A DNA stretch of 39,901 bases. Origin: a virus. Numbering within the stretch: the stretch's first letter is position 1; the number at the start of each line of letters is the position of its first letter. The stretch spans positions 1 through 39,901 of IMG/VR virus record IMGVR_UViG_3300040801_002123; one strand, written 5' to 3'. The translations under genes were made by a program, and so were the position numbers. Of this stretch, positions 118-39,901 are shown piece after piece. The notes under the pieces were generated by a model. That model was not told the DNA's origin. It searched no databases and worked only from the letters and a program-made list of their open reading frames with translations.

Positions 118-779
118 TCATCCAGGCCGCCGGCGGGATCCCGCCGCACGCGCGCCAGGTGAAAGGCGCCCTCGCGGTCGTAGTACCAGACCGGCGTCTT
201 CTGGCGTACCCCGTCCTGCGCGATCGCCAGGATCATGTCCTCGATCAGCGCCTGCACATTGGCCTGAGTGTGCGCCCGCAGATCCCGCAACAGATCGGGA
301 TCCCTGCGCTCGAAGGCCACCAGGTGCTTGAGCAGCAGCTCGGCGCGCACCAGGCACGCCCCGTAATCGAGGCAGTCCAGCGTCTCCAGGTGCGCGCAGC
401 CGGTGCAGTGGGGGTACTTGCCGGGCTTAGCGGGGAAATAGGCCGCCGTCTTCGCATGCAGCCCGTGCTTCATGGCGTTGAATCTAGTCCGCTGGGCCTC
501 CTCGGGGGTGGGGTGCCCCGCCAGGTTCTCGGCGACCTTCGCCTTACCCTCCGGCGTGCGCGGGCCGGTCGCCTTGACGTAGGCCGCCATCAGCCCCTTC
601 TCCCACCCGGCCTGGGGGGCCTCGGCCTCGCAGTCCGGACAGACGGCGAAGTACACCCAGGGGTGCCAATCCCGCTCCGGCGCATCCTCGACCCGATCCG
701 GCGCGCGAGCAAAGGCGTGCCCGCACGCCTTGCAGCGGAAGCTCACACGATCGAGGGGGTCCGTGCGCGGCTCTGCCAT
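1..779 (-). CDS. N-terminal part of a junction-spanning ORF. Putative small terminase / DNA-packaging protein with an N-terminal zinc-ribbon. It continues in nt 39568-39784, for about 331 aa in total.
   Basis: My own translation from ATG 779 is open to nt 1: MAEPRTDPLDRVSFRCKACGHAF...CPDCEAE...RFNAMKHGLHAK. It is in frame with the 39568..39885 ORF (779-101 is a multiple of 3). It sits immediately upstream of TerL. The ORF track misses it because it runs off the window edge. The function is assigned by position only. Confidence 0.5.
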   Translation of the reverse strand, partial: MAEPRTDPLDRVSFRCKACGHAFARAPDRVEDAPERDWHPWVYFAVCPDCEAEAPQAGWEKGLMAAYVKATGPRTPEGKAKVAENLAGHPTPEEAQRTRFNAMKHGLHAKTAAYFPAKPGKYPHCTGCAHLETLDCLDYGACLVRAELLLKHLVAFERRDPDLLRDLRAHTQANVQALIEDMILAIAQDGVRQKTPVWYYDREGAFHLARVRRDPAGGLDDEIEGTVPDGEWSQIYELSEHPLLKRLADFMAKNSMTLA

Positions 780-842
780 CGCGCCACACTGTAGGCGCGA
801 TGCCCAGACCGATTAAGGGCCAGCGGTGGCGGGCTCAGGGCC

Positions 843-2465
843 CTACGCAGCCGACCTAACCAGACCCGGAGGCATCGCGATGGTCACCACCCGGGTTCGC
901 GGCAAGTCCGGCTCGGGGAGCCACTCCACCTTGCTATGAACCGCCCCGCCAGGGGCCATCACGAACTTGGCTGGGTCGTACTCAATCGAGAGCATCGGTC
1001 CGAGCTTGATCGCCACGATGAAGTCCGAATAGAACGCCCTGACTCGCCTCGGGTCCTTCGTTTGATCCAGCACCTGCAGGATCGACTCCCGCAGAGCCTC
1101 CACCTCATCAGGACTGACCGCCGGCGCTGGCGCCTCCGCCGCGTCGATCACCGCGATCTCGCCGCCGAGCCGCTGCAGCTCGGCGTTGTTCTCGCGCAAC
1201 CTGCGCGTAAGGTCGCCAAGATTCGGAGTATCAGGGCCGTGGGCCTCTAGCAGCTTGTAAAGGTTGGACTGGGCCGCCTCTACGGACCGCATCTGTCTCA
1301 GCACAGCCGATCTAGCGGCACCCTGCTTCTTCGCCCATGCACTGCATACCTGGGCCAGCTCATCCACCACGCCGTGCAGTCGATCCGCGCTGAGGGCTTC
1401 CTCCTGTATCTGCGCGGCGAGCCAAGTCTCTAGCTCGCGCGCGGCGATCCTCCTGACCTTGTGGGTGCGCTCAAGCGTCGCCGCCCTGCAGGTGTAGTAG
1501 TAGTACCTCCGATTCCGCCCGGTGGCACTCTCGATCTGCATCGGCGCCCCACACTCACAACGCAGCAGGCCCGTGAACAGAAAAGTGCTGTTGTGGGCCG
1601 ACCCTGCCTGCGACGTCGGCGCGTCCTCCCTCACTCTTTTCTGCACCGCCTCCCATAGCTCAGCCCCGATTATCGGGCGGTGACTCTGCACGATGATCCA
1701 GTCCTCTCGCGGTCGCTGGCGTCCAGTGTGTCGATCCTTACGATTGAATATCAGGCGACCGAGCACGGCCTCACTGTGTAGCAGGTAGTGAATCACTGTC
1801 TTGTTCCAGCGCCGGCCGCGGTTGGTGCTGCCTCTATCATTTAGCACCCGAGCGATCGCCCTCGCACCCATCAAATTCTGCGCGCGCATCTGGAATATCT
1901 CGCGGACCAGCCCCGCTTCTTCTGGGTGAGGCTCCAGCCGCCGGCGCTTCGGATTGTCGGGTGCAGCGACTGGCCGGTACCCGAAGGGCGCGCAGCCTCC
2001 GTTCCAATACCCCATCTCCGCATTGCGTATCAGGCTGCGCCGAGTATCCATAGAGGTCTGCACACTCTTGTGCTCATCGAACAGCTCGAGCAGGCCATCC
2101 ATCATCCGACCGAACTCACTGTCCCGGTCGACCGCCAGCGAGAGATAAATCAGCTTGGTCCCGACCTCATCCAGTCGATGCTTTGAGAGCACCGCGTCAA
2201 CCTTGTTTCGAGCGAACCTGGATGAGCTCCAGCAAATAAACAGATCCACACCCCGGATCTCGCAATATTCGAGAGCCGCACGGAAGGCATCGCGGGCGGT
2301 CACTGAGCGCCCGGTTTTTCCTCCGTCCACGAACTCGCGCAGCACCGTGGCGCCGAGCTCGTTCGCCTTGCGCCGACCATGCTCCAGCTGAGCCGGGATA
2401 GATATCTCCCCCTCTACCTGCTTACGGTCGGACACCCTCGCATAGATGATCGCGGTCTTCGTCAT
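843..2465 (-). CDS. Large serine recombinase (phage integrase type).
   Basis: 540 aa. N-terminal resolvase catalytic domain (TAIIYARVSDRKQ). Central recombinase domain. Cys-rich zinc-ribbon (RCECGAPM...RRYYYYTCR). C-terminal coiled-coil. G+C is visibly lower than in neighbouring genes. Confidence 0.85.
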   Translation of the reverse strand: MTKTAIIYARVSDRKQVEGEISIPAQLEHGRRKANELGATVLREFVDGGKTGRSVTARDAFRAALEYCEIRGVDLFICWSSSRFARNKVDAVLSKHRLDEVGTKLIYLSLAVDRDSEFGRMMDGLLELFDEHKSVQTSMDTRRSLIRNAEMGYWNGGCAPFGYRPVAAPDNPKRRRLEPHPEEAGLVREIFQMRAQNLMGARAIARVLNDRGSTNRGRRWNKTVIHYLLHSEAVLGRLIFNRKDRHTGRQRPREDWIIVQSHRPIIGAELWEAVQKRVREDAPTSQAGSAHNSTFLFTGLLRCECGAPMQIESATGRNRRYYYYTCRAATLERTHKVRRIAARELETWLAAQIQEEALSADRLHGVVDELAQVCSAWAKKQGAARSAVLRQMRSVEAAQSNLYKLLEAHGPDTPNLGDLTRRLRENNAELQRLGGEIAVIDAAEAPAPAVSPDEVEALRESILQVLDQTKDPRRVRAFYSDFIVAIKLGPMLSIEYDPAKFVMAPGGAVHSKVEWLPEPDLPRTRVVTIAMPPGLVRSAA

Positions 2466-2475
2466 GGTGGCAATC

Positions 2476-2817
2476 CTATCGCCCCGTCTTGAGTCGGTTG
2501 ATGTGGCGGACGCTCACCGGCTCACACCCCTCGCGGAGTAGGGCCTGGCGAATCTCCTTCGCGCTGAGATCCTCTGCGGCGAGCTCGCGCACTCGTTGAT
2601 TCCGCCGGAAGCGGAGGTAGCTGATCAGCATCGGGACACGGATGCGCGCCTGGTCGCGCCCTGCCGGGGCCGCCAAGTTCTCCTCGTCGAGGATCCGCCA
2701 CATGCGCAAAAAGGCCTCCGCACCGATCGCCTCGGCGATTCTGACCCAGCGCTGGCCGAGCCCGAACGCCTGCAGCTCGGCCAGCAACGCGGCGTCGTCG
2801 CGCGGCGCCGTAAGCAA
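2476..2817 (-). CDS. Mor/C-like HTH transcription activator (putative late activator). Start uncertain.
   Basis: The C-terminal segment IRVPMLISYLRFRRNQRVRELAAEDLSAKEIRQALLREGCEPVSVRHINRL resembles the Mor family HTH. The N-terminal roughly 70 codons of the listed 186-aa ORF are Pro/Gly/Arg-rich, have weaker third-position G+C, and cover repeats read in different frames. I therefore rejected GTG 3036 and took TTG 2817. ATG 2703 is an alternative. Confidence 0.5.
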   Translation of the reverse strand: MLTAPRDDAALLAELQAFGLGQRWVRIAEAIGAEAFLRMWRILDEENLAAPAGRDQARIRVPMLISYLRFRRNQRVRELAAEDLSAKEIRQALLREGCEPVSVRHINRLKTGR

Positions 2818-2920
2818 AAACCTGTGCAGACTGCAGAAATCCGGGTACCCACCCCCCCCTGGGGGCAGCGGGGAGCCCTCTGCCGACCCCCCACCCCTGG
2901 CCTGCCTGGTGGCCCGGGCT

Positions 2921-2934
2921 GGGGCCTGGGGCTG
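2921..2934. repeat. Left arm of a 14-bp perfect inverted repeat, GGGGCCTGGGGCTG. Partner at 3110-3123.
   Basis: Read directly. The reverse complement of 3110-3123 (CAGCCCCAGGCCCC) equals 2921-2934. Confidence 0.85.
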
Positions 2935-2945
2935 AATTCCGTCCG

Positions 2946-3025
2946 CTGAGCTGCGCCTTTCAGGCACTGGAACCACGCTCGGCGGCCGGCAGACCGCGCC
3001 CCTGCCCTCCCTGAGCTGCGCCTTT
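2946..3025. repeat. Two 15-bp direct repeats, CTGAGCTGCGCCTTT, at 2946-2960 and 3011-3025. Both lie inside the IR-bounded segment.
   Basis: Read directly. The two copies fall in different reading frames of the overlapping ORF, which argues for a cis-acting site rather than coding sequence. Confidence 0.8.
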
Positions 3026-3109
3026 TGACGAAACACGCAGCTGGGGCAGTTCTACATCGCTAACGATACAGCCCGTTTTCATTCGCAGTTACCGAATGTC
3101 GCGGACCCG

Positions 3110-3123
3110 CAGCCCCAGGCCCC
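3110..3123. repeat. Right arm of the 14-bp perfect inverted repeat. Partner at 2921-2934.
   Basis: Read directly. Confidence 0.85.
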
Positions 3124-3193
3124 TCTCAGACCAGTGCTAGGGGTGGGGTCTGTGGGTTCTGTATCGGAGTTGGGGGAGCTCAAGGGGGCCGCC

Positions 3194-4198
3194 TCAGTCC
3201 TGGTCGAGTCTCCGCACCAGGTCGGAGACCGGGGAGCGGATCTTTCGCATGGGTGACGCCTGGTCGATGGCCTGTGTCTTCTTCCTGAGCGCGAGCTGGG
3301 TGTAGATCTGAGTGGAGCTCGGGTCCTCATGGCCCATGAGGTCCTGCTGCACCAGCAGGTGGACGTCCGATTCGGTGAGCTCAGTCCCGAACAGATGGCG
3401 GAGGGCATGCGGGTGGAGCTCGTCAGCGGGGATGCCGGCCTGCTCGCCATAGCGCTTGATCCGCCTGAGCACGTTCAGGGGGCGCACCCGCCGAGCCTCG
3501 CCGTGGTACTCATGCGGCGGCACCGTCCTGTTCTTGGTGCTGGCGAACAGCACGCGATCACCATTCGGGAGGGTGCGATCGATCCCCTCGAGCTCGGCGT
3601 GCCCGAGGTATGCGTGCAGCAGCATGGCCGTCTCGGCCGGCGCCGGCACCAGGCGCTCCTTGTTGGCCTTCTCGCTGAACCGAATGATCAGGCGCTCGCG
3701 CCGCTGATCGTCCAGGCGCCACAGGAGATCCCCCTCATTCAGCGCGCACAGCCCCGAGATCCTCGGTCCGCAGCCCAAGAGCACGGCGAGCATCGCGGCA
3801 TCGCGGACCCCGACGAACGTCTCCATATCGCAGCGCATCAGCAGCCTCTCCGCGTGCTGCAGGCTCATCGCCACGGGCAGCGGCTTGCCGGCGAGGGGCG
3901 TCTCGATGGCCTGGGCCTGGTTGTCCTTCGTGAGCCCGACCCTAAGTGCCCAGCCATAGAACCCTCGCACGGCCGAGACCAGCGGCCGCCGTGCACGAGG
4001 CGAGAGCTTGAGTTCCGAGTGCGCATGGATCCCGGTGAACGCGTCGAGCTGCTGCTGGGTGGCCTCCAGCAGACCCGTGGAGGCCTGCGCGAGAAAGGCC
4101 TGTAGGCGCTCCAGTGTCAGGCGGTACTTCGCCGCGGTGCGCTCCGAGCGCCCCTTGTTGTGCACCAGGTGCTCTAGGTATCGGTCGATAAGGTCCAT
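3194..4198 (-). CDS. Tyrosine recombinase, XerC/XerD-like integrase.
   Basis: 334 aa. N-terminal core-binding domain (RYLEHLVHNKGRSERTAAKYRLTLERLQAFL). Catalytic Arg (GCGPRISGL). HxxR (HPHALRH). His (LMGHEDPSST). Tyr nucleophile (TQIYTQL). Confidence 0.88.
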   Translation of the reverse strand: MDLIDRYLEHLVHNKGRSERTAAKYRLTLERLQAFLAQASTGLLEATQQQLDAFTGIHAHSELKLSPRARRPLVSAVRGFYGWALRVGLTKDNQAQAIETPLAGKPLPVAMSLQHAERLLMRCDMETFVGVRDAAMLAVLLGCGPRISGLCALNEGDLLWRLDDQRRERLIIRFSEKANKERLVPAPAETAMLLHAYLGHAELEGIDRTLPNGDRVLFASTKNRTVPPHEYHGEARRVRPLNVLRRIKRYGEQAGIPADELHPHALRHLFGTELTESDVHLLVQQDLMGHEDPSSTQIYTQLALRKKTQAIDQASPMRKIRSPVSDLVRRLDQD

Positions 4199-4237: not shown

Positions 4238-4612
4238 GACCCGCGAACCCGCGCACCCCACCCGCAACAGGCCTAAGTGTTTGATCAGAAAATACAAGTA
4301 CCTGCGCGGAACTGCGCGGGTTAGCCCTCGAGGAAGAGGCCAACCCGCGCACCGCCTGGCTTCCTCCGCCGCTAACCCGCGCACCGCGCCCGCTCCATTT
4401 TCCCCTCCCTTCTCTCTGCCTTTCTCTCTCTAATCATATAGATAGAGAGAGAGAGTAAGGCGAACCCGCGAAAACGGGGTTGCGCACAAATCGAGCAAAC
4501 CCGCGCACTCGCAGACCTAACCCGCGCAGCTGAGAGCACGACTCGCGCAGCGACCCTCTCAAGGATCAATGACTTAGCTCGCAAAAGGCACCCGGTGCGC
4601 GGGTTAGCGGCG
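4238..4612. repeat. Iteron field with eight copies of AACCCGCGCA(C/G). Direct copies at 4246, 4342, 4374, 4463 (variant), 4498 and 4519. Inverted copies at 4312-4322 and 4595-4605. Includes a 20-bp perfect inverted repeat, 4367-4386 / 4593-4612.
   Basis: Counted by hand in the 534-bp non-coding gap between the primase stop (4734) and the integrase start (4198). Confidence 0.85.
4423..4452. repeat. AT-rich palindrome TCTCTCTCTA-(ATCATATAGA)-TAGAGAGAGA, with 10-bp arms and a 10-nt spacer. Candidate DNA-unwinding element or recombinase core site.
   Basis: Read directly. It is the most AT-rich patch of the region and is flanked on both sides by iterons. Confidence 0.7.
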
Positions 4613-10299: not shown

Positions 10300-10562
10300 C
10301 CCTCTGCCGCCTCGCCCGGGAACAGCGGCGGCTGGTCCGCGTCGCGCGGCGGCGGCGTGCGCAGCTCGAGCTGCTCCAGCAGCTCGGCTGAGGCGGCCTC
10401 CAGGCGCAGGCGCACCTGCGCGCCGAGGGCATCGCGCAGCGTCAGCTCGCGCGAGTACAGCGCCTCGCCCACCTCGGGGTGCGGCGCCTTCAGTGCGCCC
10501 AGGCTCATCGCCTGCAGGCCCACCACGTGGACGTTCAGCCCGTTGCCGTGTGCCATGATCAT
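10296..10562 (-). CDS. Hypothetical early protein (88 aa).
   Basis: ATG 10562 overlaps the stop of the recombinase-like gene (ATGA). The N-terminal part of the listed 116-aa ORF was rejected. Confidence 0.6.
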
Positions 10563-11149
10563 GCCGAGCCCTCCTCCAGAGACAGCGCCACCTCCTCCTT
10601 CGTCGGCTGCGTGTAGATCGCCGTCGAGGAGCGGCTCGCATGACACAGCACCCGCTGCACCACCCGCAGCGGCTCACGGGCTGTCGAGTGCTCCAGCACC
10701 CGCTGCGCCAGCGTGTGCCGCCACCAGTGCGGCGAGCCCGCCGGCAGCCCCGCCTCATGCACCCAGTGCTGCATGCGCGCCTGCAGGCTGCGCACCGAGA
10801 GCCCGCGCCGGTGACGGCTCATGATCAGCGGCGCGTCCGGGTCCTGCGCATGGCCGAGCGCCCGGCGCACCCGGAGCAGATCCTGCAAGGCCACCCGGGC
10901 CCGGCGCGAGACCGGGACCTCATAGGCCCGAGCGCCCTTCGCGCGCGGCGGCCGCAGCACGCCCTCGCGGATCGCGTCCAGCGCGTCCTGCACCCGCAGC
11001 GAGGCCAGCGAGTCGACGCGGAGCCCGGTGTAGCGCAGCAGCCGCATCCAGGCGTGGTCGCGGGCGGCGATCGACCCCGTGCAGCGCGCCACCGTGCGCA
11101 GCAGCTGGCGCTCCTCGCCGGTGGTGAAGTAGCGGGCGAAGACGCTCAT
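10559..11149 (-). CDS. Catalytic-domain-only tyrosine recombinase (196 aa, no core-binding domain).
   Basis: All catalytic positions are recognisable: R ([10 protein letters not shown]), K ([14 protein letters not shown]), HxxR (SPHWWRHT), H ([10 protein letters not shown]) and Y (TAIYTQ). An in-frame stop upstream precludes a longer N-terminus. Confidence 0.75.
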
Positions 11150-16234: not shown

Positions 16235-19200
16235 TTAGTTACCTCGCGCGATCCAGAAGACGTCCCCCGAGACGCGCGCGCCGGTCGCGCGGTCGAACAG
16301 GTAGACGGAGAAGGTGGTGGGGTTGGGCGTGCCGGCGAAGTCCACCACGGCGATCACAGCGGCCGTGCCGATCGGCTGCACGTCGATGGACTGCACGTCC
16401 ACAAAGGCCTTGCTGAAGGTCACGGCCGTGCCGCCCGCATCGCCGGCGGCGCAGCTGGCGCGGCCCTGGTCGGTCTTCTCCTTCACGCTGAGGCGCACGC
16501 GCAGCTCGTTCAGGCGCAGCAGGTCGTCGCCGCCGGCGGCGGCGAAGTCCAGGCGCACCCGCACATAGCGGAAGTCCGTCTCGAACACCTGCCAGAGCCC
16601 GGGGTGCTCCGTCCAAGGGTCGGTATCGAGCGCGCGCACCGCGATGGTGGGCGTGATCGTCACCTCCCCGGCGATCAGCTCGCGCGAGAGCACGGCCGTC
16701 ACCAGCGTGCCCGCCAGCACCGTGCCGTAGTCGAAGACCTCCTCATAGAAGGCCGTGCCCTCGGCCGGCATGGCGTAGTTGGGGAAGCCCGCCGCCACCT
16801 GCTCGGCGATCGTCGCCCAGGCCCTCGAGGAGAAGTGCGTGGCCCAGGTCTCGGTGGTGTTCACCGGCACCAGCAGCCCGCCGGAGTCCAGCGGCGCGGC
16901 GTTGCTCAGCGTGCCGCCCCAGGCCGATATCCAGTCCGTGCGCAGGATGAAGTCCGGCGGCTCGGAGACGGCCACGCGCGCCTGCGCCGGCGTGCCCGCG
17001 TTGCCGGCGGAGTCCACCGGCGTCACCCAATACACGTACTCGCCCTGCTGCACCTCGAAGTGGTGAAGGATGGTCGCCGAGACGCTGCCGAGCCGCTCGG
17101 CCGTGGCGTAGTCCTCGCCGCGGTGCACGTCATAGTGGGCGATCGGCAGCGTGCCCGGGGCGGCGTCCCAGGTGAGCTGCACGTAGTTGTCGATCACCCG
17201 CTGCGCGATCGCGCTCACCGTCGCCGGCGCCACGCTCACGGCCACGCTCGCCGGCGCGCCCACGTTGCCGGCGGAGTCCACCGCGGCGACCCACCAGGTG
17301 CGCAGCCCCAGCCACTGCGCCCGGGCCGTGAACTGGCGGGCGTCGACGCGCGTCACCACCGTGGCCGTGGCCCAGTCCGCGCCGTGGCGCACCTCATACT
17401 CGGCCACCGGGAATGAGGCGGGCGGCTCGCCCCAGTCCAGCACCAGGGCCTCGGCGGTAAATCCGGCGGTGAGCTCGCCCACCGCCAGCGGCTGCTCGAT
17501 CGTGATCGACGCGGCCGCGGCGTTGGCCGAGAGGTTGCGCGAGGTGTCCCGCGCCTTGATCAGGAAGTCATAGCTGCCCTGCGCCACGATATCGAGCGCG
17601 AGCTCCGTGCCATCGATGCGCCCCACGGTCACGCCCGTGTCCCAGTCGGTGCCGGCGCGCACTTCGTAGTCCAGCAGGTCGGCATCCGGTACCGGCGCCC
17701 AGGTGAGCGCGATCCCGTAGCTGCGCGCGCTGGCCGCGAAGTCGAGCACGTCCGCCGGCGGCGCCGCCTTGCCGACGATCGAGTGCGTCAGCGTCGCGCG
17801 CCCGCTCGGCCCGTACTCGCCGCGCCGGTTCAGCAACGTCACCTCGATATCCACCAGCCCGGTGGTGCGCCAGTCGAACTCCGCGCGCCGCCCCAGCGTG
17901 CGCTCCACCACCGCCAGCGGCTCGCCGGCGGGCGCGGCGCGCACGATCGCCCCGGCGTAGTCGCCGGCGACGTCCCACACCGCCACCACGCGCACCGAGA
18001 AGGAATCGCCGGCGCGATAGAGCGTGTCGCTTACCTCCAGGTTCGCCAGCGTGGGCGCGGTGCCGCTGGCCTGGGCTGGCGTGTAGTCATAGGCGCCGAA
18101 CTCCGAGAGGTAGTAGGCGTCGTCTTCGTCCGTCGCCGTCAGCCGCACCCATTGCTCATCGATGGGCTGCACGTCCAGCACCTTCACGCGCTTGCCCGGC
18201 GTCGGCGCCGGCGCGAAATGCCAGGTGTAGTCCAGCGGCGGGTGGTCCGGGTCCGCGCTCGGGTCCACGCCCAGCGGGTCCAGCAGCGTGAGCTGCTCGG
18301 CCTCCGTGCCCGGGTACTGCACGCCGTGCACGGTGTAGGTCCCGTCCGGTTGGCGGATGCCGATGTAGTGATCGAGCCCAGTGGTGAAGGGCACGGCGCG
18401 GTCCAGCGTGAGCGTGGTGGGCGTGCCCGTCAGCAACCGACCGGAGTAGGCCCAGCGGGTGAGGTCGTGGGAGAGCTCCACCACGTCCCCGCGCTGCACC
18501 GCGCTGCCCTCCAGGTCCGTCTCCCAGGTGATGCGCCGGCGCCGGTGCACCTGCTGCGCGGCCAGCAGGTTGGCCTCGCGCCCGGCCTGGTCGCGATCAA
18601 TGATGCCCGGCACGTCCACGGTGGCCGAGTTCTCCGGCGTCGTCACCCCCGGGACGCGGGCGCGCACGCTATCCGGCTTCCAGCCCAGCTCCGGACTCAT
18701 GTAGCGCACCACCACCTCATCGGCGAGCCGCCCGGTGAGGTACTCGATCCGGAAGGAGCCCTCGCGGATGTTGTGCATGCCGAAGTGCCCGACCGCGGGC
18801 TGCCCGCCGGCATCCCACACCACGCCCAGCCGCCCCGAGCCCCAGGAGGTGGACGCCCGCCCGCAGCGGGCGATCAGGCTCAGGGCCTGCAGCACCGAGG
18901 TGCCGGAGGCATCCAGCACCAGCGAGCAGCTCAGGCCCTTGAGATCACACCAGGCGCCCCACTCCTGAATGGCCGCGATGTCGATCCGCTCATCCGCCAG
19001 GCCCGCGCCCCAGATCCGCCGCCCGCCCACAAAGCGGCCGCGCGCGAAGTACAGGAACAACCAGGCCGGGTTCTGGCTCTCCTGGGTGGTCCAGTTCGCC
19101 CCGTCCCACACCGGCACCCGGGTGGAGGCTATGGCGTTGAACTGGTCCACCACGCCCTGCAGCTGCCCGCTCGCGGTGATCCGCAGCGCCAGGCGCTTCT

Positions 19201-20374
19201 GCCCGTCATAGTCGGCGTCATCGGGCTGGTAGCTGCGCAGGCTCGACCAGCTCAGCTCCAGGGTCGCCTTCGGGTCGCCTGGGCTCACGGCCTGGCCGAA
19301 GCCCCGCGTGGCGCCCGTGAGCTGCACGCGCACCTCATACTGGCCGCGCGGTACCGAGCGGCGCACGCCCCGGCGCACCGGCGCCCGGCTCGAGCTGCTC
19401 AGCGTCAGGCTCGCCGCGTCCCCCAGCGGCAGCCAGCTCGGCCCGCCGAGCTCGCGGTACTCGATCGTCACCTGCGCGTTCAGGGTCTCCAGGTCCGTAT
19501 TGCCGAGGTAGAACAGGTACCCCGTGATCTCCACCGCCAGGGCCGTGGCGTCCAGAGGCGAGGTGCGCAGCACGGGCGGATCGCCGATGTTGAGCTCGGC
19601 GCCTGCGGCCGTGTCCACGTTGCCCGGGAAGAGCGTCAGCGCCCCATCGGCGCCGGACTCCTCCACCTCCACCCCCTGGTAGTCGCTGAGCGGGGTGTCG
19701 CCGATGCGGTAGTCCGAGAGCAGCACGTCGGTGAGCCCGAAGTGGAAGATCTGCGAGAGCACCTGGTCCTCGCCGATGAACTCGGCGTAGGGCTGGGCCC
19801 CGAGGTCCGGCGTCACACGGTGGCGCCCGAGCACCAGCGGCATGGGCGCCTCCAGGCGCGCGCGGTTGCTGCCGCCGGTGAGTCCATAGGTGGGGCTTTC
19901 GTCGTCGGCCTGCGGGCCGGCGACGTCCGGCACCTCGATCGGCACCAGGGCGTTCACCAGCAGCATGCCGCCCACGGTCACCAGCGTGGTGCCGAGCGAG
20001 GCGCTCACGCCGAGCGCGCTCCCGACCGCCCCGCCGGCCTGCGGCGCCACCAGCAGCACGGCAATGCTCAGGGCCACGCGCAGCGGGTCCGAGCCCTCGC
20101 CGCCATCCAGGCCCGCGCGCAGCACCAGCAGCTGGCCGGGCTCGGGGTAGGTCCGCGCCCAGGCCTCGCGCGGGATGCGCACATCGTCCAGCGTCAGCAG
20201 CGCCGGGCGCTCACCCGGGTGCAGCTTCAGGCGGCGCAGGTAGGCCTGCACACTCTCCCCGGCGCCCACCGGCTCGCGGTGCAGCGTGCGCCCCGCCGTC
20301 GCCAGCACCGGGTGCGGGCAGTGCACCAGGGTCGGCCGTGGCGCGTGCTCGAGCACCTGCCCTACCCCCGCCAT
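16235..20374 (-). CDS. Host-specificity / tail tip protein (lambda J / TipJ-like), 1379 aa.
   Basis: ATG 20374 overlaps the end of the K-like gene. N-terminal TipJ-like region (LLTLDDVRIPREAWARTYPEPGQLLVLRAGLDGGEGSDPLR...). Long beta-rich C-terminus. The first 177 codons of the listed 1556-aa ORF were rejected. Confidence 0.8.
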   Translation of the reverse strand: MAGVGQVLEHAPRPTLVHCPHPVLATAGRTLHREPVGAGESVQAYLRRLKLHPGERPALLTLDDVRIPREAWARTYPEPGQLLVLRAGLDGGEGSDPLRVALSIAVLLVAPQAGGAVGSALGVSASLGTTLVTVGGMLLVNALVPIEVPDVAGPQADDESPTYGLTGGSNRARLEAPMPLVLGRHRVTPDLGAQPYAEFIGEDQVLSQIFHFGLTDVLLSDYRIGDTPLSDYQGVEVEESGADGALTLFPGNVDTAAGAELNIGDPPVLRTSPLDATALAVEITGYLFYLGNTDLETLNAQVTIEYRELGGPSWLPLGDAASLTLSSSSRAPVRRGVRRSVPRGQYEVRVQLTGATRGFGQAVSPGDPKATLELSWSSLRSYQPDDADYDGQKRLALRITASGQLQGVVDQFNAIASTRVPVWDGANWTTQESQNPAWLFLYFARGRFVGGRRIWGAGLADERIDIAAIQEWGAWCDLKGLSCSLVLDASGTSVLQALSLIARCGRASTSWGSGRLGVVWDAGGQPAVGHFGMHNIREGSFRIEYLTGRLADEVVVRYMSPELGWKPDSVRARVPGVTTPENSATVDVPGIIDRDQAGREANLLAAQQVHRRRRITWETDLEGSAVQRGDVVELSHDLTRWAYSGRLLTGTPTTLTLDRAVPFTTGLDHYIGIRQPDGTYTVHGVQYPGTEAEQLTLLDPLGVDPSADPDHPPLDYTWHFAPAPTPGKRVKVLDVQPIDEQWVRLTATDEDDAYYLSEFGAYDYTPAQASGTAPTLANLEVSDTLYRAGDSFSVRVVAVWDVAGDYAGAIVRAAPAGEPLAVVERTLGRRAEFDWRTTGLVDIEVTLLNRRGEYGPSGRATLTHSIVGKAAPPADVLDFAASARSYGIALTWAPVPDADLLDYEVRAGTDWDTGVTVGRIDGTELALDIVAQGSYDFLIKARDTSRNLSANAAAASITIEQPLAVGELTAGFTAEALVLDWGEPPASFPVAEYEVRHGADWATATVVTRVDARQFTARAQWLGLRTWWVAAVDSAGNVGAPASVAVSVAPATVSAIAQRVIDNYVQLTWDAAPGTLPIAHYDVHRGEDYATAERLGSVSATILHHFEVQQGEYVYWVTPVDSAGNAGTPAQARVAVSEPPDFILRTDWISAWGGTLSNAAPLDSGGLLVPVNTTETWATHFSSRAWATIAEQVAAGFPNYAMPAEGTAFYEEVFDYGTVLAGTLVTAVLSRELIAGEVTITPTIAVRALDTDPWTEHPGLWQVFETDFRYVRVRLDFAAAGGDDLLRLNELRVRLSVKEKTDQGRASCAAGDAGGTAVTFSKAFVDVQSIDVQPIGTAAVIAVVDFAGTPNPTTFSVYLFDRATGARVSGDVFWIARGN

Positions 20375-39567: not shown

Positions 39568-39901
39568 CTAGCGCGCGTCGTCATCGTCGGCCTGCCGATG
39601 CTCGATCAATACCGGGTCGCGGGCGAGGTTATCTCGGCTGCGCCTGATCTGCTCCGAGAGCTGCTCGAGCAGCCCCGAGGTGCGCTCCTGGTACTCCAGC
39701 GCGGACTCGCGCTCATCGCGCTGCCCGTCGAGAAAACCCTGCACCATGTCGTCCTGGGTCTGCTGGCGCGGCGTCATGTCCAGATCGGCCAGCGTCATGC
39801 TGTTCTTGGCCATGAAGTCGGCCAGGCGCTTGAGCAGTGGGTGCTCGCTCAGTTCGTAGATCTGAGACCACTCACCATCAGGCACCGTGCCCTCGATCTC
39901 A
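39568..39901 (-). CDS. C-terminal part of the junction-spanning small terminase-like ORF. Nt 39785-39901 duplicate nt 1-117.
   Basis: Same frame as 1..779. The Met listed at 39885 is internal to the full ORF. Confidence 0.5.
   Translation of the reverse strand, partial: EIEGTVPDGEWSQIYELSEHPLLKRLADFMAKNSMTLADLDMTPRQQTQDDMVQGFLDGQRDERESALEYQERTSGLLEQLSEQIRRSRDNLARDPVLIEHRQADDDDAR
39785..39901. repeat. Terminal direct repeat, copy 2 (same as nt 1-117).
   Basis: Identical 117 nt at the window start. Confidence 0.9.

Follow-up and report, generated by a model that had tools for sequence, protein, structure and literature searches.

A Perfect Inverted Repeat between Two Phage Recombinase Genes Lies within a Conserved, Putatively Protein-Binding Repeat Array

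Organization of the Locus

The 203-bp interval studied here (positions 2921–3123) belongs to the IMG/VR virus record IMGVR_UViG_3300040801_002123, which we analyzed over its full length of 39,901 nucleotides (hereafter, the window). The interval is bounded by a perfect 14-bp inverted repeat (IR), contains two 15-bp direct repeats (DRs) and is placed between two recombinase genes. An earlier note on this DNA had described it as a non-coding module, possibly an invertible switch, upstream of a Mor-like activator. Comparison with about 150 related loci leads us to a different description: judged from the sequences, the interval forms the central part of a conserved cis-acting array, about 350 bp long, and not a self-contained invertible module.

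The genes around the array lie on the minus strand, in the order primase/Toprim (7541–4734), Xer-type recombinase (4198–3194), array region, a small open reading frame (ORF) ending at 2476, and serine recombinase (2465–843). Gene order and Pfam domains agree in placing the segment between two recombinase genes, as the earlier note had it. The features of the locus are as follows; the half-sites are described further below.

843–2465, minus strand: large serine recombinase of 540 aa, a phage integrase (Pfam Resolvase, Recombinase and Zn_ribbon_recom; PHROG 95, integrase, E = 1e-87)
2476–2976, minus strand: gene for a small protein of 166 aa (the "Mor-like" protein of the earlier note), with a predicted-disordered N-terminal stretch of 55 aa and a helical C-terminal domain
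2921–2934, no strand assigned: left arm of the IR, in what is probably the low-complexity, predicted-disordered N-terminal coding part of the small gene (…IQPQAPA…)
2946–2960, minus strand: second direct half-site copy, AAAGGCGCAGCTCAG on the gene strand, at codons 6–10 of the small gene and 65 bp from the first copy
2974–2976, minus strand: probable GTG start codon of the small gene, aligning with the GTG start of the three closest relatives
3014–3042, no strand assigned: 11-7-11 palindrome, AGCTGCGTGTT-tcgtcaa-AAGGCGCAGCT on the gene strand, whose right arm is the DR copy at 3011–3025
3070–3079, minus strand: conserved box AAAACGGGCT (family consensus rAACGGGCTAA), 15–36 nt upstream of the palindrome and present in nearly all related loci
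3084–3090, minus strand: extra half-site core, AACTGCG on the gene strand, oriented like the palindrome's left arm
3110–3123, no strand assigned: right arm of the IR, about 70 nt past the recombinase stop, in a stretch that cannot be aligned with relatives
3194–4198, minus strand: Xer-type tyrosine recombinase of 334 aa, directly upstream of the array on the gene strand (Pfam Phage_integrase and Phage_int_SAM_1)

For comparison, 58 IMG/VR contigs were gathered through pattern and protein searches, and 80 further loci were picked from 297 relatives purely by homology of the tyrosine recombinase. About 70 true matches were found in bacterial genome contigs (L143–L222), mostly from Beta- and Gammaproteobacteria, and many of these are inside large chromosomal contigs. 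The proteins of the relatives are 35–55% identical to those of the window, so that the family is a broad one. By taxonomy, the relatives of the cassette are beta- and gammaproteobacterial prophages, from Burkholderiales, Neisseriales, Vibrio, Photobacterium, Alteromonas and others. The sole annotated, cultured relative is Microcystis phage vB_MaeS-yong1 (MT855965; hereafter yong1), which has the same three-gene cassette. This phage is recorded as infecting Microcystis, yet the part of its sequence that we inspected is G+C-rich, and its host assignment may deserve a second look.

The Inverted Repeat

A repeat search confirmed the IR reported in the earlier note: its arms, GGGGCCTGGGGCTG (2921–2934) and CAGCCCCAGGCCCC on the plus strand (3110–3123), are complementary at 14/14 positions and stand 175 nt apart. 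Such a repeat had been considered unlikely to arise by chance. In dinucleotide-preserving shuffles this holds within the 364-nt intergenic stretch, where a perfect IR of at least 14 nt is rare (P = 0.0016), but not across the 39.9-kb window, where 0.56 perfect 14-mer IRs with a gap of 20–500 nt are expected per shuffle and 33% of the shuffles have at least one. Since it was the whole 39.9 kb that the earlier reader had scanned, the IR is not significant at window level.

Short IRs around a segment of about 200 bp beside recombinase genes recall fimS and the Bacteroides invertons, and the earlier note had proposed that the 14-bp arms are crossover sites, with flipping of 2935–3109 switching the downstream gene on or off. 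The local improbability of the perfect IR speaks for such a switch, as do the two recombinase genes that flank the segment; moreover, the whole half-site array lies inside the IR together with ribosome-binding site and start codon, and a flip would uncouple all of these from the gene.

Against this stands, besides the number of such IRs expected by chance, the absence of the IR from all relatives compared, about 150 loci that include some with 61–64% recombinase identity. In yong1, neither IR arm aligns. Among 57 oriented loci, the longest perfect IR around the equivalent region is typically 6–8 nt, and the few of 10–13 nt are placed elsewhere. The three closest relatives, whose recombinases are 56–64% identical to that of the window, have no IR of 9 nt or more. 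Both arms are situated in G+C-rich, low-complexity, poorly conserved sequence, and they do not carry the sequence common to the conserved half-sites. The three closest relatives have a shorter left-arm region than the window, where it looks like an expansion of CAGSCC-like low-complexity sequence. By all appearances the 14-bp IR is a private feature of one phage lineage, arisen in low-complexity G+C-rich sequence.

No inversion was seen in the roughly 150 loci, where the internal landmarks (box, palindrome, start codon, second repeat) have the same order and orientation throughout relative to the flanking genes. The window's own small protein is also encoded on three short contigs from sibling JGI samples. 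These span the whole IR-bounded segment, in the same orientation as the window, which they match exactly apart from one 65-nt deletion. The earlier note had named the finding of a single orientation in read data as what would tell against its idea; at the level of independent assemblies, one orientation is what we found in 4/4 cases (source metagenomes 3300040777–3300040779 and the window's own sample), a count that leaves room for the opposite view insofar as assemblies report majority states only and a rare inversion would escape.

The 65-nt deletion (contig L237, from JGI 3300040777) runs exactly from DR to DR and is equivalent to window positions 2961–3025. It takes out one repeat together with the GTG start and the ribosome-binding region, and leaves the upstream frame shifted. 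It is the sole structural polymorphism among the assemblies of this phage, and appears to be a natural variant made either via microhomology or via some action at the sites.

The earlier note had found no convincing sigma-70 promoter inside the segment, and our search likewise detected none: within 2400–3400 the only sigma-70-type match is at 2446–2473, outside the segment, though activator-dependent promoters would escape such detection. By eye, the box AACGGGCTAA yields no acceptable −10 element and the sigma-54 spacing (GG-N10-GC) does not fit TACCTGGATAACTGCAC. There is no intrinsic terminator in the array. Second copies of the half-site, the palindrome or the G blocks (see below), which could serve as partners for inversion or excision, were found nowhere else in the window.

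Finally, invertons use invertases of the FimB/E or Hin/Mpi types, whereas the recombinases here are Xer-type and integrase-type (the latter a large serine enzyme). For the tyrosine recombinase, the XerD/XerC-type models of NCBIfam gave E values of 1e-47 to 1e-53 (below their cut-offs), vs 1e-5 for tyrosine-type invertases. The locus thus differs from fimS and the Bacteroides invertons in that the IR is unconserved, no alternative orientation was seen, no internal promoter was found and the segment is partly coding, the left arm and one DR probably belonging to the small gene. In our judgment the IR is not a recombination substrate, and we give next to no credence to an IR-bounded promoter switch at this place.

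At most, the IR could close an RNA stem in read-through transcripts. A 216-nt RNA with the IR as its closing stem folds at −108.4 kcal/mol, vs −92.2 ± 4.9 kcal/mol in shuffles (z = −3.3; 1/200 shuffles folds equally well). One might imagine that, in this lineage only, the stem sequesters the 5′ untranslated region and the start codon of the small gene in read-through transcripts, so that translation would occur only from transcripts starting inside the array; with all genes on one strand, read-through is plausible. The stem is, however, conserved in no relative, the excess in folding energy comes mostly from the IR itself and the putative operator palindrome, and there is no covariation to test. 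We consider such a role improbable.

The Direct Repeats

The two 15-bp direct repeats of the earlier note are also real: CTGAGCTGCGCCTTT occurs at 2946–2960 and at 3011–3025 with 15/15 identity, 65 nt start to start. The inventory was nevertheless incomplete, as it overlooked a third, inverted copy of the core, which forms the palindrome at 3014–3042, and the further core at 3084–3090. The family-wide equivalent of the DR is an 11–12-mer with the consensus AAAGCGCAGTTC. The left arm of the palindrome is an inverted copy of this half-site; the 11-7-11 layout is kept in relatives, and the core covaries between the two arms. Partial half-site copies farther upstream, analogous to the one at 3084–3090, are frequent in relatives too.

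The core of the half-site differs among phages, with more than 30 variants (GCGCAGT, GCGAAGT, GCGTAAT, CCGCAGT, CCGAAAC and others), whereas the copies within each phage match each other, across more than 90 distinct loci. The direct copies are 55–56 bp apart in 27 loci and 64–65 bp apart in 29; these two spacing classes are one helical turn apart, and the intervening sequence is unconserved. Covariation, a spacing that stays fixed despite the unconserved interval, and its 10-bp quantum point to the DNA site of a sequence-specific, probably oligomeric protein. Within the 39.9-kb genome the half-sites are confined to this one locus, hence the presumed binder would be a dedicated local factor and not a global repressor.

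The direct repeats are thus best described as copies of a lineage-specific half-site, and as part of a putative protein-binding array that was previously undescribed yet of a conventional kind. As a fallback, the earlier note had offered "a recombinase att site or a regulator-binding array", and this fits the DRs insofar as they are conserved, covarying and helically phased sites. It does not fit in the sense of an integration attP. That possibility is ruled out, since the array is intact and contiguous in chromosomal prophages and proviruses end after the serine integrase. Nor does the array suit as the attP of a large serine recombinase, a site of about 50 bp whose imperfect inverted half-sites abut a central dinucleotide and which is split in the prophage: the IR arms are 175 nt apart and the region is intact in prophages.

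A perfect 9-bp palindrome, CATCGCGCC-N8-GGCGCGATG (777–802, minus strand), is located between the stop of the serine integrase gene (843) and the next gene, whose ATG it overlaps. Because provirus contigs of relatives end directly after the serine integrase gene, this palindrome is a candidate for the attP core of the integrase, and a better one than the array.

The Small Downstream Gene

In most loci, a Shine–Dalgarno (SD)-like AAGGGG followed by ATG or GTG is found 0–25 nt upstream of the second repeat copy, so that in most lineages the SD sequence and the start codon stand between copy 1 and copy 2. The ORF is open from that start through the conserved helical domain, including in A+T-rich members of the family, where open frames are informative, and independent gene callers assign about 165 aa to the homologues. 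As the GTG at 2976 aligns with the starts of the relatives, the left IR arm and the DR copy at 2946–2960 fall inside the gene. The coding sequence is therefore probably 2476–2976, and the segment that had been called a non-coding module is non-coding only in part, with 2921–2976 most likely coding.

The AlphaFold2 model of the small protein has a pLDDT above 90 for residues 60–166 and below 50 over much of 13–47. The protein has no Pfam match at E ≤ 0.01, no PHROG match and no NCBIfam match, and precomputed Pfam domains are found in 0/120 of its homologues. A 37-sequence profile gave no match in the PDB, and a Foldseek search of the model against the PDB returned nothing below E = 1 (best E = 3.9).

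It follows that the "Mor-like activator" of the earlier note could not be upheld. There is some outward likeness to Mor/C of phage Mu (PF08765, PDB 1RR7): the protein is small, its helical C-terminal domain may bind DNA, its gene stands upstream of those for other phage functions, and the GenBank record of yong1 names its homologue "middle operon regulator". Unlike Mor/C, though, the protein matches no family, no PDB profile hit and no Foldseek hit could be obtained despite a confident model, and the yong1 label appears to be an unsupported annotation.

In six Vibrio/Photobacterium loci (L148, L149, L168, L191, L196 and L211), the C-terminal domain to which the same leader is fused is longer and more divergent. 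The leader there consists of a half-site overlapping the ATG and then the G-rich element discussed below, and the Xer gene lies 0.8–1.8 kb further upstream. One of these loci (L149) has two tRNA-Val genes about 1.4 kb beyond the Xer gene.

Possible Roles of the Array

We favor, with about as much doubt as confidence, the view that the array is an operator for the small-protein/serine-integrase operon. The array, about 350 bp long, lies between the Xer-type recombinase gene and this operon and would overlap the first ~56 nt of the small gene. The two DRs would be two of at least three copies of an 11–12-bp site for a phage-encoded, sequence-specific DNA-binding protein. One of them, together with the inverted copy, would make up the 11-7-11 palindrome directly upstream of the ribosome-binding site, the other being a whole number of helical turns downstream, within the first codons. 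A dimeric or oligomeric protein could then occupy both palindrome and auxiliary copy by cooperative binding to a single face of the helix, and transcription of the small-protein and integrase genes might start within or beside this protein complex, which would control their expression. In favor of this view, the array remains with whatever gene follows it where the Xer gene is missing (L156 and L186), and it also persists without the small protein in three loci (L036, L053 and L042).

Phage operator arrays with auxiliary in-phase sites are known, for example the CI sites OR, OL and OD of TP901-1 and the OR/OL cooperativity of lambda. Here, too, a dyad site near the start of an operon is accompanied by a helically phased copy partly within the first gene, and the sites are phage-specific and covarying. 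The half-site centres are, however, about 22 bp apart in the 11-7-11 layout, wider than in typical helix-turn-helix operators, the sites occur at one genomic locus, and both binder and promoter are putative.

Some observations weigh against an operator. No sigma-70-like promoter was found in or near the array, and no conserved −10/−35 pair could be defined; the link to transcription is thus drawn from position. The similarity of half-sites between phages follows that of the Xer protein with a partial Spearman coefficient of 0.15–0.17, vs 0.09–0.11 for the small protein, so that covariation pointed weakly to either neighbour and did not single out the binder. Instead of selection, two clades may in part account for the bimodal spacing. 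And the 11-7-11 geometry, together with the near-constant adjacency to an intact tyrosine recombinase, would fit a recombination site equally well.

This last point deserves some attention. The array could be the cognate site of the Xer-type recombinase, that is, a single-copy multimer-resolution site comparable to those of P1 Cre/loxP or XerS/difSL, in which the 11-7-11 palindrome would serve as core, and the flanking boxes and extra direct copy as accessory binding sites. The recombinase is Xer-like over its full length, and the catalytic residues R146, K177, H264, R267, H290 and Y299 are all conserved (36 homologues), so it is catalytically intact as far as can be predicted. Two 11-bp arms around a 7-bp spacer are canonical core geometry for a tyrosine recombinase (11–13-bp arms, 6–8-bp spacer), the site is single-copy, and in most of the ~150 loci it lies 60–120 nt past the recombinase stop. 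A separate integrase occupies the downstream slot (a serine enzyme or, in L041, a tyrosine one), so the Xer-like enzyme needs another job. Half-site similarity follows the small protein slightly less well than it does the Xer protein, and the array is intact in integrated prophages, hence not an integration attP.

Systems in which a single recombinase acts at a site beside its gene are familiar (P1 Cre/loxP, XerS/difSL, F ResD/rfsF), and the present locus resembles them in having an intact tyrosine recombinase gene and an adjacent single-copy 11-7-11 site. Extra direct copies are known from native FRT, which has a third element, and from the integron attI site (DR1/DR2), and a third, directly repeated copy is present here as well.

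Other facts speak against a recombination site. Two loci (L156, with the order primase, array, integrase, and L186) keep the array and the G-rich element without the Xer gene, all other sufficiently long loci having both. Where extra DNA has been inserted (L146, L037 and the Vibrio/Photobacterium loci), the array has remained beside the downstream gene and not beside the recombinase. The sites of Xer, Cre and XerS-type enzymes normally need no third copy 55–65 bp away, and it would be unexpected for a gene start to be embedded between recombination sites, as it is in nearly all lineages. In this third copy, this embedded start and the two loci without recombinase, the array is unlike Cre/lox-type systems. 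On balance, a role as the recombinase's own site seems to us the main rival explanation, though a doubtful one.

A further candidate is a packaging site, pac- or cos-like, comprising the array and the G-rich element: the repeats would be bound by a protein like the small terminase subunit, whose gene would contain a conserved cleavage site at its 5′ end. In the window and many relatives the cassette is directly upstream of genes for a 315-aa protein, the large terminase and the portal; variable repeats next to an invariant, single-copy G-rich box parallel cosB/cosN of lambda, and SPP1 pac may also be compared. In yong1, however, the cassette is found between lysis and immunity genes, about 14 kb from the terminase. 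It is with recombinases, not packaging genes, that the cassette travels. No similarity between the small protein and terminase small subunits was detectable, and no contig ends at the G-rich element. We regard this explanation as very improbable, and return to the operator as the preferred one.

The G-Rich Element

Beside the array, within the disordered N-terminal coding region of the small gene, there is a second conserved feature.

2831–2896, minus strand: G-rich element; on the gene strand GGGTGGGGGGTCGGCA (2881–2896), a 24-nt C-rich spacer, GGGGGTGGGTACC (2844–2856) and then cGGATttCTGCAg

The core of 53–54 nt (2844–2896) is conserved at the nucleotide level in about 150 proteobacterial phage and prophage loci; the 3′ flank is cGGATnnCTGCAc, conserved as yGGATnnCTGCAc. 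The exact pattern was present in the 58 IMG/VR contigs, and the element was found in about 70 bacterial genome contigs and in about 66 of the 80 loci picked by recombinase homology only. It is single-copy in each genome.

Several features indicate that selection acts on the nucleotides. Within the unbiased set, GGG GTG GGG GGT CGG is essentially invariant at its four-fold-degenerate third positions, and the one position that varies is the second of a codon (G/C/T). Block 1 of the 53-nt variants is read in the other frame (GGGSA vs GVGGR), and the element is kept where no ORF covers it (L036, L053 and L017).

The spacer has 43% C, vs 26% in the flanks, and real spacers fold with the G blocks slightly better than shuffled ones; minimum-free-energy structures vary by locus, giving no single conserved RNA fold of the element. 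No conserved C-rich partner for the G blocks was found upstream, complementarity there being not above that of shuffles, and CCCCACCCCT, at about 3138–3147 in the window, is private to this phage. A bipartite pattern, G3-N1-3-G3-N≤40-G3-N1-3-G3, fits 72/92 distinct copies, and the canonical G-quadruplex (G4; loops ≤7 nt) fits 5/92. Conservation at the non-G positions (TCGGCA, TACC) equals that of the G tracts, an indication of sequence-specific recognition. The motif belongs to no Rfam family, and its strings were found in no relevant context in the literature searched.

A known parallel is the pilE-associated G-quadruplex of Neisseria, G3TG3TTG3TG3. The present element similarly has two GGGTGGG units on one strand, beside recombination genes, but its halves are about 36 nt apart and few copies fit a canonical G4. 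We tentatively suggest that a large family of temperate phages infecting Beta- and Gammaproteobacteria has in the G-rich element a cis-acting nucleic-acid signal that had not been described before, a proposal we make with more caution than conviction. The element may act through its structure, as a bipartite GGGTGGG...GGGTGGG quadruplex or as alternative hairpins between G blocks and C-rich spacer within the integrase-operon leader, or else a highly conserved factor may bind it.

Other Features of the Window

What follows the small gene differs among phages, as if this were an exchangeable "integrase slot": most have a large serine recombinase there and L041 a P4-type tyrosine integrase, whereas in L013, L037 and L057 the slot is empty. 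The next genes after the slot are always those of a 315-aa Zn-ribbon protein, the large terminase and the portal (IMG/VR loci L041, L013, L037, L057 and L036). In the window, the same three genes follow the serine recombinase, wrapping around the end of the contig, and the first of them, which encodes the 315-aa protein, straddles the contig ends. A 117-nt terminal direct repeat (1–117 and 39785–39901) implies that the window is a complete circular (or circularly permuted or assembled) phage genome of about 39.8 kb.

In an exact look-up, no gene on record had precisely the window's Xer protein as its product. A second, short tyrosine-recombinase-like gene (10559–11149, minus strand; 196 aa) encodes the catalytic Phage_integrase domain only; yong1 has a likewise annotated gene at 18888–19505.

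Between the primase and Xer-type recombinase genes (4241–4612) there are dense AACCCGCGCAC(C)-type repeats in both orientations, which include a perfect 20-nt IR (4367–4386/4593–4612) and a (CT)n/(AG)n palindrome (4418–4461). This second repeat array may be an iteron-type origin or a control region.

No tRNA or tmRNA gene was found in the window. Rfam searches of the whole window at the gathering threshold, and of 2600–3300 at E ≤ 10, gave noise only (mir-345, SECIS), and there was no DNA match in the plasmid collection.

Implications

The comparison yields a clean negative, in that a locally striking, perfect IR between two recombinase genes is, on the evidence given above, not an inverton; it also illustrates that relatives and sibling assemblies can settle such a question without read data. 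In its place we obtain a map of a cassette shared by about 150 or more phages and prophages of Proteobacteria, made up of Xer-type recombinase, array, G-rich element, small protein, integrase slot and packaging genes, for which the sole cultured representative, yong1, had been annotated by guesswork.

If the array is an operator, it would define how integrase expression is controlled in this cassette family. If it is instead the site of the Xer enzyme, the two would form a new phage pair of the Cre/lox kind with many natural specificity variants, which would be of practical interest as orthogonal sets of recombinases and sites. The G-rich element offers a rare clear case of nucleotide-level selection overriding codon degeneracy; should our tentative reading of it be true, the element and the variable half-site array would together constitute a composite control or recombination site.

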